Assembly: GCA_964202965.1 (NCBI GenBank)
Contig: CAXNKG010000003.1
Span: 23,032 to 87,031 of the forward strand
DNA length: 64,000 nt
Direction of reading: 5' to 3'
DNA from: Vicinamibacterales bacterium
GTDB taxonomy: Bacteria; Acidobacteriota; Vicinamibacteria; Vicinamibacterales; UBA2999
Shown: one piece after another, positions 20,135-62,909 of the stretch
Layout: the number at the start of each line of letters is the position of its first letter
Position numbering within the stretch: the stretch's first letter is position 1
Notes under the pieces: model-generated
Seen by the model: the letters and a program-made list of their open reading frames with translations, nothing else
Database searches by the model: none
What the model was told of the DNA's origin: nothing
Translations under genes and position numbers: made by a program

Positions 20135-20169
20135 CCGGTAGTGAGTAGGCGGTAGGCGGAAGTCAGTAG
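20135..20169. repeat. heptanucleotide tandem array (5 units, NNNGTAG)
   Basis: CCGGTAG TGAGTAG GCGGTAG GCGGAAG TCAGTAG fills the gap between the convergent guaB and tsaE stops. It overlaps the tsaE stop. Confidence 0.8.
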
Positions 20170-20570
20170 GTTATTCGGCGCGAGGTCTCGTCCACAATCT
20201 CCATCGTCACCGTCGTCGCGCCCGCCAGCGTGTGAGAGAGGCGCTCGGGCCATTCAATCGCCAGCACGCCGTCCCGCACGCCCATCTCTTCCAGTCCCAG
20301 GTCGTTCGTCGCCGCACTGTCCAGCCGGTACAGGTCTACGTGATACAGCGTGAGCCGCCCGCCGCGGTACTCGTGAATCAGGGTGAAGGTGGGGCTGCTG
20401 ACTTCCCGTGTGTCGATGCCAAGGCCCGCAGCCAGGCCGCGGGCGAACGCGGTTTTCCCCGCTCCGAGGTTGCCCGACAGCAGCACGACGTCGCCGGCCG
20501 TGAGGGTGGCGGCGAGCTCGCGCGCCACCGCCTGCGTCTCGTCCTCGGACTTCGTGAGATGTGTGGTCAT
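20163..20570 (-). CDS. tsaE: tRNA t6A biosynthesis ATPase TsaE
   Basis: 135 aa; LSGNLGAGKTAFARGL, SPTFTLIHEY, LYHVDLYRL. Confidence 0.9.
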   Translation of the reverse strand: MTTHLTKSEDETQAVARELAATLTAGDVVLLSGNLGAGKTAFARGLAAGLGIDTREVSSPTFTLIHEYRGGRLTLYHVDLYRLDSAATNDLGLEEMGVRDGVLAIEWPERLSHTLAGATTVTMEIVDETSRRITY

Positions 20571-33170: not shown

Positions 33171-33589
33171 AAGCGTCGCAGCTTTCCGTAAGCCGAATCC
33201 TGTCCAGCCGTCGCGGCCTTGCGGCCGCTATGACCTGGACGACCATTCCTCTAGGCCCGCGATTGCTCGCGGGCTCAAGCGACCTACCCGGTGGCTTCGG
33301 ACGGGCCGTCCTCAAACGCCACCCTATTTGGTCTTGCTCCGTGCGGGGTTTTGCCTGCCACCCGTGTTGCCACGGGCGCGGTGCGCTCTTACCGCACCTT
33401 TTCACCCTTACCCACCATAGCGCCGAGGCGCGACGGTGGGCGGTATTTTTTCTGTGCCACTATCCGTCAAGTTGCCCTGCCCGGGCGTTACCCGGCGCAC
33501 TGCCCTCTGGAGTTCGGACTTTCCTCCCGCCTCCGCCGTTGGCCGTGAAGCCCGCGCGGAGACCGGCGGTCGTCTGGATTACTGCGACT
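33171..33589 (-). ncRNA. rnpB: RNase P RNA, bacterial type A
   Basis: The minus strand contains the universal cores GGAGGAAAGTCCGAACTCC, AAGGGTGAAAAGGTGCGGTAAGAGCGCACC and ACAGGATTCGGCTTAC. P1 pairing is GTCGCAG (33588..33582) with CTGCGAC (33181..33175). Only junk ORFs occur on both strands. The ends are approximate. Confidence 0.92.
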
Positions 33590-33604: not shown

Positions 33605-35038
33605 CTACCCGTCGAGTTCCTGCTTGATCCCGTGCTGTTCCAGCTTCTTGTACAGGTTGCTGCGGGGCGTATCGATCACCTCAGCCGTCTTCGAGATGTT
33701 CCAGTTGTTCTCCCGGAGCTTCTGCACGAGGAAGGCCCGCTCCGCCACATCCTTGAACTCGCGCAGGGTGCCGGCGCCCGTCCCCGCGATGTCCGCGGGC
33801 GCTGCTTCCGCCGGGGCTTCGAGCCGGCTGACGCCCGGCTCTGCATCAGCGTCCGGCGGGCGCGCCGCGCCCTCTCCCCTCATGTCCCGCGGCAAGTCCT
33901 CCGTGCGTACGCTGTCGCCCGCAGCCATGATCAGCACGCGCTCGACGGTGTTGCGCAGCTCGCGGATGTTTCCCCGCCAGCGGTACCGCTGGAGCGCCTC
34001 CAGCGCGCGCGCGTCGAAGCGCTTGGGCCGGAGGTTGTGCTCCTCGCTGATGCGCTTCGCGAAGTGCTGCACGAGCGCCGGAATGTCGGCCTTCCGGTCG
34101 CGCAGCGGCGGCACGACGATCGGGATGACATTCAGCCGGAAGAAGAGATCCTCACGGAACTCGCCCCGCGCGATCGCGTCCTCGAGGTCCTTGTTGGTGG
34201 CCGCGATGACGCGCACGTCCACCTTGATGGTACGCGCCGACCCGAGCCGTTCGACTTCCTGCTCCTGCAGCACCCGCAGGACCTTGGCCTGCGTCTTGGG
34301 GCTCATGTCGCCGATTTCATCCAGGAAGATCGTGCCGCGGTCGGCCTGCTCGAACTTGCCGATCTGCTTCTCGGTCGCGCCGGTGAACGATCCCCGTTCG
34401 TGCCCGAAGAGCTCCGACTCGATGAGTTCCTCCGGAATCGCCGCGCAGTTCACCTGGACGAACCGCTGCCCCGCCCTGGAGCTGTTCCGGTGAATCGTCC
34501 TGGCTACGAGCTCCTTCCCCGCACCGCTCTCGCCGAGCAGCAGCACGGTCGCATTGGTGGGGGCGGCACGTCTGACGTCCTCGAGCACCCGCCGGAGCGC
34601 CGGGCTGTCCCCGACGATCTCGTACTTCGCCTCCATCGCGAGCTTCAGCTCACGGTTCTCCTGCCGCAGATCCTGGGTCGCGAGCACGTTCTGGAGCGTG
34701 ACGATGACGCGCTCGCTGCTGAGGGGCTTGTCCAGGAAGTCGACCGCGCCGGACTTGATCGCGTCGACGGCGGTGCTGGTCGTGCCATGGCCGGAAATCA
34801 TCACCACAGGCATGGTGTCGTCGATGGCGCGGATCTGACGCAGCGTCTCCATGCCATCCATCCCTGGCATTTTGATGTCGAGCAGCACCACGTCCGGCCG
34901 TTCGCGCCGGAGGGCGGCGAGCCCCTCCTGCGCTGATCCCGCGCCGGTAAACCCGTAGTGTTCGTACTCGAGGATCATCCGCAACGAATCACGGATCGCC
35001 GGCTCGTCGTCGATGACCAGAATTTTGGGTTTCATCAC
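33605..35038 (-). CDS. NtrC-family sigma-54-dependent response regulator (REC-AAA+-HTH)
   Basis: KILVIDDEPAIRDSL...VLLDIKMPGMDG; GESGAGKE; near-canonical ELFGHERGSFTGA; GNIRELRN; C-terminal Fis-type HTH. Confidence 0.92.
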   Translation of the reverse strand: MMKPKILVIDDEPAIRDSLRMILEYEHYGFTGAGSAQEGLAALRRERPDVVLLDIKMPGMDGMETLRQIRAIDDTMPVVMISGHGTTSTAVDAIKSGAVDFLDKPLSSERVIVTLQNVLATQDLRQENRELKLAMEAKYEIVGDSPALRRVLEDVRRAAPTNATVLLLGESGAGKELVARTIHRNSSRAGQRFVQVNCAAIPEELIESELFGHERGSFTGATEKQIGKFEQADRGTIFLDEIGDMSPKTQAKVLRVLQEQEVERLGSARTIKVDVRVIAATNKDLEDAIARGEFREDLFFRLNVIPIVVPPLRDRKADIPALVQHFAKRISEEHNLRPKRFDARALEALQRYRWRGNIRELRNTVERVLIMAAGDSVRTEDLPRDMRGEGAARPPDADAEPGVSRLEAPAEAAPADIAGTGAGTLREFKDVAERAFLVQKLRENNWNISKTAEVIDTPRSNLYKKLEQHGIKQELDG

Positions 35039-35043
35039 AAACA

Positions 35044-35129
35044 GGTTCCGGGTTCCACGTTCCGGGTTCCGGGTTCGATCGCAACGCCGAACATGAACCT
35101 GGAACCCGGAACCTGGAACTCGGAACTGT
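35044..35129. repeat. inverted pair of heptanucleotide arrays (GGTTCCG units) forming a long imperfect hairpin
   Basis: GGTTCCG GGTTCCA CGTTCCG GGTTCCG GGTTCGA - tcgcaacgc - CGAACAT GAACCTG GAACCCG GAACCTG GAACTCG GAACTGT. It fills the gap between the protease stop (35136) and the regulator start (35038). Confidence 0.85.
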
Positions 35130-35135
35130 CGAAGT

Positions 35136-36617
35136 TCACCGTTCCAGTGTGACGGTTTCGAGCGTGCGCTGGCCGAGCTCGGGCTTGTAGACGTACATCG
35201 TGAGAATGTCGCCGGGCGAGACGCGGTCGGTCAGCCGCCGGTAGTCGTCCACGCCCGCCACGCGCTGGCGATTGATTTCGAGCACCACATGGCCGCGCTC
35301 GATGTCGGCGTCGAACGCGGGACTCATCGCCTCGACGCGCGACACGATGACGCCGCGCATGCCGTCCGGCAGGCGGTACCGGCCCGCTGACTCCTCGTCG
35401 AGTTCGCGGACCGACAGTCCGATCGGCGAACCTCGATACGTCGACGGCTCAGGCCGTGAGCCCTCCGTGGCCGGGCGATCCCGTCCCGGCCGCTCGGCGA
35501 GCTTCACCGTGACGTTCAGGGAGCGGCCGTCGCGCAGCACCTGCAGCGTCGCGGCCGAGCCTGGCTCGCGGGCCGCGATCAGCTGGATGAGCGAATCGTT
35601 GCTCTCAATGGAGCGGCCGTCCACCGCGACAATGACGTCGTAGGTCCGGATGCCGGCGCGGGCCCCTGGCGAATCGGGGGTCACGTCCTGGACGAGCGCG
35701 CCGGTGGCGGACGCGAGGTTCAGCGACTGCTGGAGGTCCCGATCGACGTCCCGGAGCGTCACGCCGATGTAGCCGCGCGACACCCGTCCCTTGTCGCGCA
35801 ATTGCGGCAGGATCTCGCTGGCCTGGTTGATCGGCACGGCAAAACCGATGTTCGCCGCGCGCGAGCTGATCGCCGAATTGATCCCGATGACGTCGCCGTC
35901 GGCATTGATCAGCGGCCCGCCGCTGTTGCCGAAGTTAATGGCCGCGTCCGTCTGGATGTAGCGATCCAGCGACCGGTCGAACAGCTTCCGGCCGATGAAG
36001 CTGACCACGCCCACCGTCACGGTGTGCTCGTACGCCAGCGGGTTGCCGATCGCGATGACCCACTCGCCTACCCGCAGCGCATCGGAGTTGCCCAGGGGCG
36101 CATGCGGCAGCGGCCCGGCCGCCTCGACCTTGACGAGGGCGATGTCGGTATCGGGATCCGAGCCGACCGTGGTGCCGCGCAGCTCGCGGCCGTCACTGAG
36201 GCGAACCATGATCCGGTCGGCGCCTTCGATCACGTGATGATTCGTGAGGATGAACCCCTCGGCATCGATGAGGAAGCCGGTCCCCGCGCCGCGGCGGGGT
36301 CCGTCAGGATCCTGAGGCTGTGGCCGCTGGAAGATGTCGGGCCCGTTCGGAAAGGGCGACGTCCGCCGCCGGCGCGGGGCCTCACCGCGGGTGGTCGCGC
36401 CGATGTTGACGACCGTCGGATTCAGGCGCTCGGCGACGTCGGCAAAGGACGCGGTCGCGATGGCTATGCGGGTCGCCGGCGTGTCGGCGACGCGCGGCGC
36501 GGGCGGCGTGGCGGAGATGGCCGGCGCGGGGGTCATGGAGCCCGCGACAACAAGGCCGACGAGAAACGCGACCGTCGCGGCCAACGCCGACGTCACCGCC
36601 AGGAACCGCCGGGTCAT
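35136..36617 (-). CDS. DegP/HtrA-family periplasmic serine protease with two PDZ domains
   Basis: ATG 36617 (MTRRFLAVTSALAATVAFLVG). Catalytic triad contexts TNHHVIEGA, DTDIALVKV, GNSGGPLIN. The upstream part of track ORF 35136..36731 overlaps ligA. Confidence 0.9.
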   Translation of the reverse strand: MTRRFLAVTSALAATVAFLVGLVVAGSMTPAPAISATPPAPRVADTPATRIAIATASFADVAERLNPTVVNIGATTRGEAPRRRRTSPFPNGPDIFQRPQPQDPDGPRRGAGTGFLIDAEGFILTNHHVIEGADRIMVRLSDGRELRGTTVGSDPDTDIALVKVEAAGPLPHAPLGNSDALRVGEWVIAIGNPLAYEHTVTVGVVSFIGRKLFDRSLDRYIQTDAAINFGNSGGPLINADGDVIGINSAISSRAANIGFAVPINQASEILPQLRDKGRVSRGYIGVTLRDVDRDLQQSLNLASATGALVQDVTPDSPGARAGIRTYDVIVAVDGRSIESNDSLIQLIAAREPGSAATLQVLRDGRSLNVTVKLAERPGRDRPATEGSRPEPSTYRGSPIGLSVRELDEESAGRYRLPDGMRGVIVSRVEAMSPAFDADIERGHVVLEINRQRVAGVDDYRRLTDRVSPGDILTMYVYKPELGQRTLETVTLER

Positions 36618-36627
36618 CGTCTGTCCA

Positions 36628-39686
<3,059 letters not shown>

Positions 39687-39704
39687 AGCCGTCGATTTTA
39701 GCAG

Positions 39705-40490
39705 CTACGGCTTGAAGAGCCGTACGAAGTTGTCGCGCGTGGCCGCGGCGATGTCGCCCGCCGTGGTGCCGCGGAGAGCGGCGACCGCGCTGGCGACGTG
39801 GATCACCCGAGCCGGCTCGTTGCGGGTTCCCCGGTGCGGCACCGGCGCCAGGAAGGGGCTGTCGGTTTCGATGAGGAGCCGATCGATCGGCACGAGCCTC
39901 GCGACGTCATGGAGCTCGTGTGCCCGCGGGAATGTCACGATGCCCGCCAGCGAGAGGTAGAAGCCGAGATCGAGCGCGCGCGCCGCCATGGCGCGGTCGC
40001 CCGTGAAGCAGTGCAGGACCACGCCGGTGTCGCCGGCGGATTCCTCCGCCAGTACGCGGAACGTATCCTCCTCTGCCTCCCGGGTATGGATGATGATGGG
40101 CAGCGCCAGGCGGCGGGCGGCGCGGATCTGTTCGCGGAAGACCGCCTGCTGCACATCGCGCGGCGCGAAGTCGTAGTGGTAGTCGAGCCCAATCTCCCCA
40201 AGTGCGCGGGCGGCGGGCCGGCCGGCGATGCGCGCCTCCACCAGGCGGGCCGCGCGGCCCGGGTCGTCCGCAAACTGCGCAGCGGCGTGGGGGTGGACCC
40301 CAACGGACAGCCTGATCGCGTCCCAGGCGGCGGTCACGACGTTGGCGCGCTCGTACTCCGCCTCGTCATCCGCCGCGATGATGACGAGCGCCCCCGTCAG
40401 CCCGGCGGCCCGGGCGCGCTCGATGACGGCTGGAAGATCGGCCTCGAACTCCTCGCCGGCCAGGTGGCAGTGCGAGTCAACGAAAGTCAA
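39705..40490 (-). CDS. tatD: TatD-family metal-dependent hydrolase
   Basis: TTG start giving (M)TFVDSHCHLAG; IIHTREAEEDT; LLIETDSPFLAP. Confidence 0.9.
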   Translation of the reverse strand: MTFVDSHCHLAGEEFEADLPAVIERARAAGLTGALVIIAADDEAEYERANVVTAAWDAIRLSVGVHPHAAAQFADDPGRAARLVEARIAGRPAARALGEIGLDYHYDFAPRDVQQAVFREQIRAARRLALPIIIHTREAEEDTFRVLAEESAGDTGVVLHCFTGDRAMAARALDLGFYLSLAGIVTFPRAHELHDVARLVPIDRLLIETDSPFLAPVPHRGTRNEPARVIHVASAVAALRGTTAGDIAAATRDNFVRLFKP

Positions 40491-40520
40491 AGGTCAAAAG
40501 TCAAAAGTCAAAAGTCAGGG
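40486..40520. repeat. heptanucleotide tandem array (GTCAAAR x5)
   Basis: GTCAAAG GTCAAAA GTCAAAA GTCAAAA GTCAGGG lies in the 38-nt gap between the metG stop and the tatD start. The tatD TTG codon lies in the first unit. Confidence 0.85.
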
Positions 40521-50287: not shown

Positions 50288-50316
50288 GGAGCAGCTAGGC
50301 TACCTTAGGTCGCCCA

Positions 50317-50372
50317 CCTTTGACCTTTGACCTTTGACCTTTGACCTTTGACCTTTGACTTCTGACTTTTGA
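50317..50372. repeat. heptanucleotide tandem array (CCTTTGA x6 perfect, then 2 degenerate)
   Basis: CCTTTGA x6, CTTCTGA, CTTTTGA. It starts one nt after the stop of the 50374..51081 gene and ends 30 nt before the DedA start. It is the reverse complement of the unit at 40486..40520. Confidence 0.9.
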
Positions 50373-50373
50373 C

Positions 50374-52403: not shown

Positions 52404-52438
52404 TAATTAACCACCAACCACGAACCATTGCTATAGTC

Positions 52439-56126: not shown

Positions 56127-56204
56127 GGCTTTGGGCTTTGGGCTCTGGGCTTTAGGCTTTGGGCCGGCCAAGGGCCGAGAGCCAAAAGCCTAGCGCCTAG
56201 AGCC
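56127..56204. repeat. inverted pair of heptanucleotide arrays (GGCTTTG units) around a GGCCGGCC centre
   Basis: GGCTTTG GGCTTTG GGCTCTG GGCTTTA GGCTTTG GGCCGGC | CAAGGGC CGAGAGC CAAAAGC CTAGCGC CTAGAGC. It fills the ccmB-ccmC gap up to 1 nt from the ccmC ATG. Confidence 0.85.
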
Positions 56205-61800: not shown

Positions 61801-62316
61801 CTAGTACGACGTACTAGGGGTTCCTGAAGTTCCTAGGGTTCCTGAGGTTCCTAGGGTTCCTGAGGTTCCTAGGGTTCCTGAGGTTCCTAGGGTTCCTGGG
61901 GTTCCTGGAGTGCCTGAAGTTCCTGGGGTGCCGCCGACCTGGGGCTCGTATTTCGACGGGCACTTCGCGGTCATGCTGGTCGCGTGGAAGCCGTCCTCCG
62001 CGAGCGTGCCCTGAAGCACCACCTCAGACTCGTTCTTGAACGTGTCGGGAACGACGCCCGTATACGTGGCGCGTACCACGTGCCCCTTGCTGTGCATCTC
62101 GAAGCTGTAGTCGAGGGAGTCGCGCTTGCGGCGGATGTCCCTGGCGTAGCCGTGAATCTGGAGCGGCTTGCCGTACCAGGGTGCCGGCTGGACCATCACT
62201 TCCTCGACGTGCTTGTAGTACTGCGCGCTCTCGCCGAGCGTGGAATAGAGCAGCCCCCCGAAGGCGAGGGTCAGCACCACGCCGGTGATCCCGATTTTCG
62301 CGGCTTTGTGACTCAT
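61801..62316 (-). CDS. ccmE: haem chaperone CcmE, CxxxY variant with Gly-Thr-X repeat tail
   Basis: ATG 62316 ([23 protein letters not shown]). OB-fold core. MTAKCPSKY aligns where canonical CcmE has the HxxxY haem-binding motif. The tail is [43 protein letters not shown]. Confidence 0.88.
61818..61934. repeat. 13 tandem 9-bp units (GGTTCCTNR) inside the ccmE 3' end
   Basis: The 18-bp unit GGTTCCTGAGGTTCCTAG occurs about 4 times, flanked by degenerate 9-mers. It shares the GGTTCC core with the array at 35044..35129. Confidence 0.9.
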
Positions 62317-62345
62317 AGGTAAGGACTTCTGCCCCTCAGGTGCCC

Positions 62346-62909
62346 TCAGGATACCAATATTCCCGCGTTCTTGCACAGGTCGTAGACAAGGCCAACCGGC
62401 AGCCCGACCACATTCGTATAGGGGCCGGAAATCGTCGTCACAAAGCGCGAGGCCAGCCCCTGGATCGCATACGCGCCCGCCTTGTCCGAGGGCTCGCCAG
62501 ACGCCACGTACCAGTCGATGTCCCCGTCCGTGAGCGGCGCGAAGTGGACGGTGGTGGATGCGATCTCCGTCTGGAGCGCCCCAAACGCGAGGCAGACCCC
62601 CGTCAACACCACGTGCGCTCGCCCCGACAGCATCCGCAGCATCCGCTTCGCGTCCGCTGCGTCAGCCGGCTTTCCGAGAATGTCGTCCCCGCAGACGACC
62701 ACCGTATCGGCCCCGAGCACCGGCCGCCCCGCTGCCCTGTCAATCACCGCGCGTGCCTTGGCTTCGGCGAGCCGCGCGACGTAGGCGTCCGCAGCTTCGC
62801 CGTCGCGCCGCGTCTCGTCGACGTCCGCCGTCAGCACGTCGAACGCGATGCCCGCCGCGCGGAGCAGCTCGGCTCGTCTGGGTGACGCCGACGCCAGGAC
62901 TAGCCGCAC
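62346..62909 (-). CDS. maf: Maf-family nucleoside triphosphate pyrophosphatase
   Basis: [29 protein letters not shown]. Confidence 0.9.

Follow-up and report, generated by a model that had tools for sequence, protein, structure and literature searches.

The short tandemly repeated repetitive (STRR) sequences of heterocystous cyanobacteria are tandem intergenic heptamers that fall into defined unit families (three heptanucleotides in Calothrix) and occur in AT-richer genomes, and the repetitive extragenic palindromic (REP) sequences and bacterial interspersed mosaic elements (BIMEs) of enterobacteria and pseudomonads are intercistronic operon hairpins able to stabilise the upstream mRNA; REP sequences are present in hundreds of copies of one ~35-nt consensus and are linked to RAYT transposases. 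The element analysed here recalls both: it is an 86-nt hairpin (positions 35044-35129), built from tandem heptamers and their inverted copy, that separates a protease gene from a regulator gene in a stretch of 64,000 nt (the window) of contig CAXNKG010000003.1, part of a metagenome-assembled Vicinamibacterales (Acidobacteriota) genome from soil (GenBank assembly GCA_964202965.1). We read this element as one case of a clade-wide class of intergenic heptanucleotide repeats in the Vicinamibacterales, and as a by-product of mutation rather than a conserved regulatory device. The likeness to the cyanobacterial heptamers drawn in the original prediction, which was made from the DNA sequence of the window, is apt in that the window arrays are likewise tandem heptamers in intergenic DNA; the STRR sequences, however, belong to another phylum, form defined families and are not characterised as hairpin pairs. 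As with REP sequences and BIMEs, the window hairpin may work as an intercistronic, mRNA-stabilising hairpin, but it is unique in sequence among the window and 181 other loci and is built of tandem units.

In many bacteria, among them the GC-rich Burkholderia and Xanthomonas, long simple sequence repeats (LSSRs) are most often heptanucleotides according to the survey of Mrazek et al. (2007; summary in PMC4679880); LSSRs are described there as beyond-chance arrays of 5-11 nt units with a patchy phylogenetic distribution, and polymerase slippage on a 7-nt contact is proposed as their cause. The window arrays share the unit size, the beyond-chance length, the patchy distribution and the heptanucleotide class, being head-to-tail units in lineage-specific non-coding excess with copy-number variation at orthologous sites, although the survey in this summary is without Acidobacteriota and without mention of inverted pairs. 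The same design is in fact already described from Xanthomonas. Rehm et al. (2015; PMC4692102), who also mention the STRR heptanucleotides, reported GGGAATC / GGGGAYT heptameric repeats in Xanthomonas and Nostoc: the Xanthomonas arrays are strongly intergenic, over-represented between same-strand open reading frames (ORFs), no more than 50 bp away from a start or stop codon, and include 70-75 convergent inverted pairs per genome that are able to form a stem-loop or cruciform; array length varies across related species with the single or inverted-pair type preserved, the repeats show no link to surface genes, slippage has been put forward as their origin and no function is known for them. Given these reports, the view of the original prediction that heptamer repeats are not known as a described feature of this kind of GC-rich genome does not hold. 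The elements share tandem 7-nt units, a GC-rich genome, an intergenic position between same-strand ORFs near start or stop codons, inverted pairs and length variation between species. Xanthomonas, in contrast, uses one dominant G-tract unit (GGGNATC) genome-wide, with a four-unit preference and demonstrated G-quadruplex formation, whereas the units here are locus-specific (GGTTCCG, AAAGTCA, ACCTTTG, GGCTTTG and others) and contain no canonical G-quadruplex (G4) motif in an acidobacterial host. What differs is therefore the phylum, the many unrelated units and the missing quadruplex potential.

Two further systems are comparable. In marine Beggiatoaceae as well as some cyanobacteria and Bacteroidetes, TAACTGA repeats (MacGregor 2015; PMC4679880) form direct sets that end one to a few nucleotides upstream of start codons, in genes without Shine-Dalgarno motifs that include housekeeping operons; in a similar manner, the window arrays at tatD and ccmC adjoin or include the start codon. 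TAACTGA is the sole unit of that system and faces the downstream gene in a constant orientation, apart from one inverted case among 170 (PMC4679880), whereas the window clade shows many units, both orientations and frequent inverted pairs. In Geobacter metallireducens, a fairly GC-rich genome, GGACCGG x4 elements are likewise short tandem heptamer blocks, some between operon genes, but there one consensus is dispersed in 49 copies with four fixed units, also inside genes (PMC2700814). Our literature searches found no report of heptamer repeats in Acidobacteria or Vicinamibacter.

Anatomy of the hairpin and its junction in relatives

Direct reading of the sequence confirmed the tandem heptamers and their inverted copy at 35044-35129, which together with the adjoining genes are arranged as follows:

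33605-35035, minus strand: sigma-54-dependent (NtrC-type) response regulator, downstream gene (Pfam Response_reg, Sigma54_activat and HTH_8)
35044-35076, minus strand: arm nearest the regulator start, 3' arm in mRNA sense (Tandem Repeats Finder (TRF), repeat search and folding)
35077-35094, minus strand: non-repeat loop of 18 nt, GATCGCAACGCCGAACAT on the plus strand
35095-35129, minus strand: arm nearest the protease stop, 5' arm in mRNA sense, GTTCCNG in about five units
35136-36617, minus strand: DegP/HtrA-family serine protease, upstream gene (Pfam Trypsin_2 and two PDZ domains, homolog names, and a database gene call in the independent assembly L001)

On the plus strand, the arm at 35044-35076 reads GGTTCCG, GGTTCCA, CGTTCCG, GGTTCCG and GGTTC (GGTTCCN x4.7, hence GAACCNG-type units in the transcript), and 35095-35126 reads GAACCTG, GAACCCG, GAACCTG, GAACTCG and GAAC; variant units of one arm are not mirrored in the other. 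TRF assigned both arms a period of 7 (4.7 and 4.6 copies, 84% matches), the repeat search returned arms of 32 nt with 91% complementarity separated by 18 nt, and the unit 20-mer has six matches in the window, all within the element, where shuffles expect 0.01. Five and six heptamers around a 9-nt spacer had been described at first: the inverted design holds, with about 5 + 5 units and an 18-nt loop unless the degenerate GCCGAAC and ATGAACC are counted. Similarly, the arrays do fill nearly the whole gap between the two same-strand genes, which measures 100 nt with the homology-supported ATG of the regulator, and the 97 nt initially given only if GTG at 35038 is the start. The stem base lies 5 nt beyond the protease stop codon (35138-35136) and ends 4 nt ahead of the regulator ATG (35035-35033), which has no Shine-Dalgarno motif. 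One unit, GTTCCAG, is the exact reverse complement of CTGGAAC, the last codons of the protease, and the segment 35099-35127 of the arm shows complementarity to positions 35129-35147, the protease 3' end.

The long hairpin proposed from the letters is borne out by RNA folding, with -60.4 kcal/mol for the sense (minus-strand) RNA (z -6.8) and -64.0 kcal/mol for the plus strand (z -8.5); with DNA parameters the hairpin folds at -33 to -35 kcal/mol (z about -6.9). The hairpin is real and its folding is far beyond chance. The loop contains degenerate unit remnants and, in the sense strand, an AUG, which opens a 19-codon ORF (MFGVAIEPGTRNVEPGTCL; 35091-35033, minus strand) that runs across the 3' arm and whose UGA overlaps the regulator AUG (UGAUG); we estimate the chance occurrence of such an arrangement at ~0.1, and translation of this ORF could open the stem and re-couple the regulator.

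The terminator or attenuator role that had been suggested for the hairpin was not upheld: a scan of the site called no terminator and no sigma-70 promoter, and an intrinsic terminator was rejected since there is neither a scan call nor a U-tract (sense-strand tail UUUGUGAUGAAA); a U-tract is also wholly absent from the ccmB-ccmC hairpin described below. Rfam 15 at gathering threshold gave no match at the hairpin, and a known RNA family was rejected on this basis; the sole match in the window is the bacterial class A RNase P RNA (288 bits) at 33174-33585 on the minus strand, directly downstream of the regulator gene.

In order to place the element among its relatives, we used the syntenic block MetRS-TatD-polyprenyl synthase-LigA-protease-regulator, of which five junctions were anchored in ~20 lineages (~22 with the addition of L184 and L186). 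Junction coordinates were anchored by tblastn and database gene calls, gene callers based on third-position GC content (GC3) being imperfect, and close relatives were collected by exact-protein look-ups. The protease|regulator junction takes the following forms:

L089, L091, L169, L179, L183, L184 and L004 (seven lineages): 4-nt stop/start overlap (TTGA or GTGA)
L095: 5-nt stop/start overlap
L082, L083 and L087 (closest relatives, protease identity 89-93%): gap of 9-10 nt, no repeat
L093: one GTTCC unit
L088 and L186: two GTTCC units
L002: about four GTTCC units
L003: about 11 irregular GTTCC-type units, in opposite orientation
L092: plain GGGCCGTTCC...GGAACGGCCC hairpin
Window: 5 + 5 inverted units

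Since the closest relatives have 9-10 nt without a repeat, many lineages overlap and several hold 1-11 units, the comparison indicates that the hairpin is a lineage-specific expansion and not a conserved element. The left flank is homologous (TTCGACAGTTCC in the window, GACGACCGTTCC in L088/L002), and the graded copy numbers of one seed at one site point to growth in place rather than transposition: the element looks to have grown out of a local seed of old standing, which was then expanded or lost lineage by lineage in recent evolutionary time. The start codon of the regulator also changes with the spacer, being TTG or GTG in lineages with an overlap or a gap of up to 10 nt and ATG in six of the seven lineages with gaps of at least 19 nt. 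A shift of this kind fits a loss of translational coupling, but as the lineages are not independent we regard the pattern as suggestive only.

Heptamer arrays in the window and across the clade

The original prediction had listed a second inverted period-7 pair at 56127-56204, which we confirmed in the ccmB-ccmC gap, and simple period-7 arrays at four other sites, of which two were recovered clearly and two are weak:

20145-20170, strand not assigned: weak array GTAGGCG x3.7, 73% matches (TRF), between the convergent genes for IMPDH and TsaE
40483-40517, minus strand: direct array AAAGTCA x5 (sense strand TGACTTT; TRF), fills the MetRS-TatD gap
50316-50373, minus strand: direct array ACCTTTG x8.3 (TRF), adjoins the stop codon of an outer-membrane beta-barrel gene, 28 nt ahead of the next same-strand gene
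52409-52427, strand not assigned: weak array AACCACC x2.7 (TRF), in a 35-nt gap between divergent genes
56127-56204, minus strand: second inverted heptamer pair, GGCTTTG x5.4 / GCCTAGA-type x4.4 (TRF, folding, Pfam)

The second pair fills the 82-nt ccmB-ccmC gap, begins 1 nt from the ccmC ATG, carries five GGG tracts on the plus strand and folds better in antisense (-62.6 kcal/mol) than in sense (-46.0 kcal/mol). A lag-autocorrelation scan of the window found six period-7 segments and zero to two for each other period within 5-12; arrays are present in just six of ~37 window gaps of at least 25 nt. The called TTG start of TatD lies within the heptamer array in three lineages (window 40488-40490; L088 1752; L179 1923), where the start codon is thus part of the repeat unit. 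Another tandem array, of 9/18 nt (GGGTTCCTG x12.6, 61817-61929, in the minus-strand gene 61801-62376), has a GGTTCC core like the hairpin unit; it is situated at the ccmE 3' end, directly ahead of the ccmF start, and its translation appends a (GTP/GTS/GTL)n tail to the CcmE domain; because its period is a multiple of three, the array stays in frame.

Scans of public genome and metagenome contigs with the protease gave mostly distant phyla among the matches listed, which were used as negative control, and at least ~14 Vicinamibacterales-like loci. In a census with TRF (score of at least 40, at least three copies), 337 kb of Vicinamibacterales-like DNA held 21 period-7 arrays (62 per Mb), which make up 21 of the 29 arrays with periods of 2-12, in comparison with 11 in 2.04 Mb (5.4 per Mb) of DNA from other phyla obtained with the same queries: the clade is ~11 times denser. 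At a score of at least 50 the densities are 35.6 per Mb and 1.5 per Mb. The arrays are thus present elsewhere, in the window and in its relatives, as had been anticipated, and are intergenic in 37 of 41 cases; for 16 arms an inverted partner was found no further than 200 nt away, which together with L082 (missed by the probe) gives about nine hairpin loci. The unit varies by genome even at one junction (MetRS|TatD: TGACTTT, CCCAAAN, TTGMATT, CAACTNC, CCGACTC or CGGGGCT), and where CAGTAGG is shared at LigA|protease the copies differ, with 4.4 + 4.4 in L088 and 11.6 + 8.3 in L091. Abundance is uneven: three long-read-style contigs and L005 carry none (21 kb each), and several loci of other phyla, notably the two Pirellulales contigs L053 and L064 and also L162 and L036, have two or three heptamer arrays each. 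The arrays are patchy and not unique to the Vicinamibacterales.

Several observations concern the other junctions of the block. At MetRS|TatD (about L082 6070-6135), L082 and L083, which have an identical protease, are 96% identical downstream and 85% upstream; L082 has a CCCAAAN heptamer hairpin at this site and L083 three copies of a 14-nt TatD-start duplication, and the step in identity reflects either an assembly chimera or recombination with its breakpoint at the repeat. In L088, L091 and L095 the first repeat unit contains the LigA stop codon. A separate REP-like unit of ~44 nt with the hairpin GTCCGGCTTCAGCCGGAC occurs in the LigA|protease gaps of L179 (5868-6000), L089 and L183 in three, two and one tandem copies, respectively, and a looser relative of the heptamer pairs, with inverted CACGAAG(G)-type arrays of period ~7-11 and a loop of ~90 nt, lies in the polyprenyl synthase|LigA gap of L004 (7800-7980). 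The TatD|polyprenyl-synthase gap (~75 nt) holds a conserved promoter-like TTGACAC-N17-(G)ATATGGT in L088, L095, L093, L003, L179, L169, L183 and L004 (more diverged in L091) and has shrunk to 18 nt in the window clade (window 39687-39704). Upstream of the protease ATG, TATAAT/CATAAT is found at 8-12 nt in most lineages (window 36618-36640; L088, L089, L090, L091, L093, L094, L095, L169, L179, L183 and L186), and only 13 of 67 starts in the clade have a Shine-Dalgarno-like motif ahead of them, which suggests near-leaderless transcripts in a clade poor in Shine-Dalgarno sites.

Origin of the hairpin and alternative explanations

Taking these observations together, we consider it probable that the element is a slippage-made simple sequence repeat (7-nt register, local seed) that was turned palindromic by template switching and is tolerated in an operon spacer, where it incidentally breaks coupling. 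The ancestral protease and regulator genes would have overlapped (TTGA) or lain only ~10 nt apart, and a short GTTCC seed would have appeared in the spacer as an inverted copy of the last protease codons, CTGGAAC. Replication slippage in a 7-nt register could then have enlarged the seed into a direct array, relatives holding 1, 2, 4 and ~11 units, and in the lineage of the window the inverted arm may have been added by a template switch, intrastrand or at the fork (fold-back copying), yielding a quasi-palindrome. In the polycistronic mRNA, a stem of ~36 bp (-60 kcal/mol) would have its base 5 nt beyond the protease stop and 4 nt short of the regulator AUG and would break the old termination-reinitiation coupling; the regulator would consequently have to initiate independently at an ATG beside a very stable helix. 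A stable helix 4 nt from the AUG should matter for initiation, as the clade uses few Shine-Dalgarno motifs, and the likely result would be a regulator translation that is lowered relative to that of the protease. A 3' exonuclease barrier or an RNase III substrate might arise as an incidental result.

A number of points weigh against this account. All comparison loci belong to a single syntenic block, in lineages that are not independent, and the slippage and template-switch steps are ones that we infer from sequence comparison. Inverted pairs make up almost half of the intergenic arrays, more than simple slippage predicts, so that hairpins may be selected or made by a specific mechanism. L179-L182 (76% protease identity) share the TGACTTT array that the window has at MetRS|TatD, down to the variant unit in fourth position, a hint of constraint or, at the least, of slow turnover. 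Finally, the slippage-prone spacer of the original prediction finds support in the copy-number differences between species, but not at strain level: copy number showed no variation within two sets of 10 and of four contigs, from different samples, that encode an identical protease protein. A phase-variable contingency locus was rejected on the lack of strain-level variation and the adjoining housekeeping genes, the strain data for this hairpin itself being two assemblies.

The alternative that deserves most attention is a functional intercistronic RNA hairpin, REP-like or similar to an RNase III site, with arrays as the raw material, that is selected to set the protease:regulator ratio by shielding the upstream cistron from 3' exonucleases, by RNase III cleavage or by masking the regulator initiation region. 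The stem, which is very stable, reaches exactly from stop to start; about nine hairpin loci of the clade lie at within-operon junctions, and the high share of inverted pairs among the arrays keeps this explanation alive; with Shine-Dalgarno motifs at 13 of 67 starts, initiation should be governed mainly by structure around the AUG; the regulator begins with ATG in six of seven lineages with a long spacer; and the inverted-pair type is kept from L088 to L091 despite the change in copy number, as in Xanthomonas. Against this, the closest relatives lack the element, as do most lineages at the junction, the variant units of its two arms do not mirror one another, a U-tract is missing, and neither window hairpin has a sense-strand folding advantage (-64.0 against -60.4 and -62.6 against -46.0 kcal/mol, antisense against sense). 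Among 10 inverted-heptamer hairpins the antisense strand folds better in six and the sense strand in three, with one tie, and both window hairpins are among those that favour antisense; as the sense strand is not the better-folding one overall, there is no G.U-type signature of mRNA selection, and sense-strand RNA selection via G.U pairs was rejected as a candidate for lack of bias. We hence hold selection for such a function to be possible but on balance unlikely, and the conserved RNA stabiliser or processing site of the original prediction is likewise unlikely, given the closest relatives without the element and the absence of a sense-strand preference.

A DNA-level structure or protein-binding array acting on transcription or replication (a cruciform, a G-quadruplex or sites for, e.g., the adjacent sigma-54 activator) could draw on the far beyond-chance DNA fold, on the G-quadruplexes that Xanthomonas heptamers form in vitro (PMC4692102) and on the five GGG tracts of the ccmB-ccmC hairpin. 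Nevertheless, the canonical G4 motif (G3+N1-7 x4) is absent on both strands of all four array gaps, and a G-quadruplex model was rejected for these units; no single binding protein fits, because the units differ between loci and genomes; the distance from array to ATG is 8 nt, which leaves no room for a sigma-54 promoter, and no promoter was called; and close relatives have the same regulator without the element. An autoregulatory site for the adjacent sigma-54 activator was rejected on geometry, absence in close relatives and heterogeneous units elsewhere, and the DNA-level explanation as a whole appears distinctly improbable. A mobile palindromic element (REP/BIME-like or of the type of MITEs (miniature inverted-repeat transposable elements)) inserted in the spacer is more improbable still. 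The hairpin does resemble a clean ~90-nt insertion into a spacer of ~9-10 nt (the gap minus the hairpin leaves ~9 nt, as in L082/L087), and the truly REP-like 44-nt unit, a different one, is present in one to three copies in the LigA|protease gap of relatives. However, GGTTCCNGGTTCC occurs nowhere else in the window or in the 181 other loci, so that the element is not a dispersed REP or MITE and this candidate was rejected; every hairpin has its own unit, the relatives hold graded copy numbers of one seed at one site, and neither terminal repeats nor target or flanking duplications distinct from the array are evident by eye. An artefact of short-read metagenome assembly has in its favour that the window stems from a MEGAHIT-type assembly and that the three long-read-style contigs examined carry no arrays. 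Yet L001, an independent assembly of the same population with two mismatches in 11,788 nt (99.983% identical), has the identical hairpin and the same arrays, and the 86-nt element is shorter than a sequencing read and than k=141; an artefact is therefore very unlikely, the least probable of the explanations weighed here. Comparable arrays are moreover found in many assemblies of differing pipelines and samples, identical across 4-10 samples, and the long-read contig L186 holds two GTTCC units at the protease|regulator junction.

The evidence contains no pointer to a new mechanism. A bolder proposal would be that the Vicinamibacterales make 7-nt arrays and their inverted copies independently of sequence, through a property of the replisome or of repair or through a dedicated enzyme, and that the resulting unit-diverse hairpins serve as modular intercistronic RNA structures (e.g. 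RNase III or exonuclease checkpoints, or stems bridging stop to start) that retune gene ratios in a Shine-Dalgarno-poor clade; we regard this proposal as doubtful.

Significance for the Vicinamibacterales

If slippage and template switching account for the hairpin, the value of the finding is descriptive: heptanucleotide repeats, including inverted pairs, are extended to a major and poorly studied soil phylum. Many unrelated units can adopt the inverted-pair form, and this diversity favours general 7-nt slippage over explanations that depend on a particular sequence, such as a G-quadruplex or a single binding protein. The arrays also bear on how such genomes are read: since start codons lie within them they can mislead gene callers, they mark junctions with broken translational coupling and they may coincide with recombination breakpoints. 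Unit diversity and the frequency of inverted pairs in a little-studied phylum are the noteworthy aspects, and should the hairpins prove to set cistron ratios, they would represent a simple and evolvable device for the tuning of operons.

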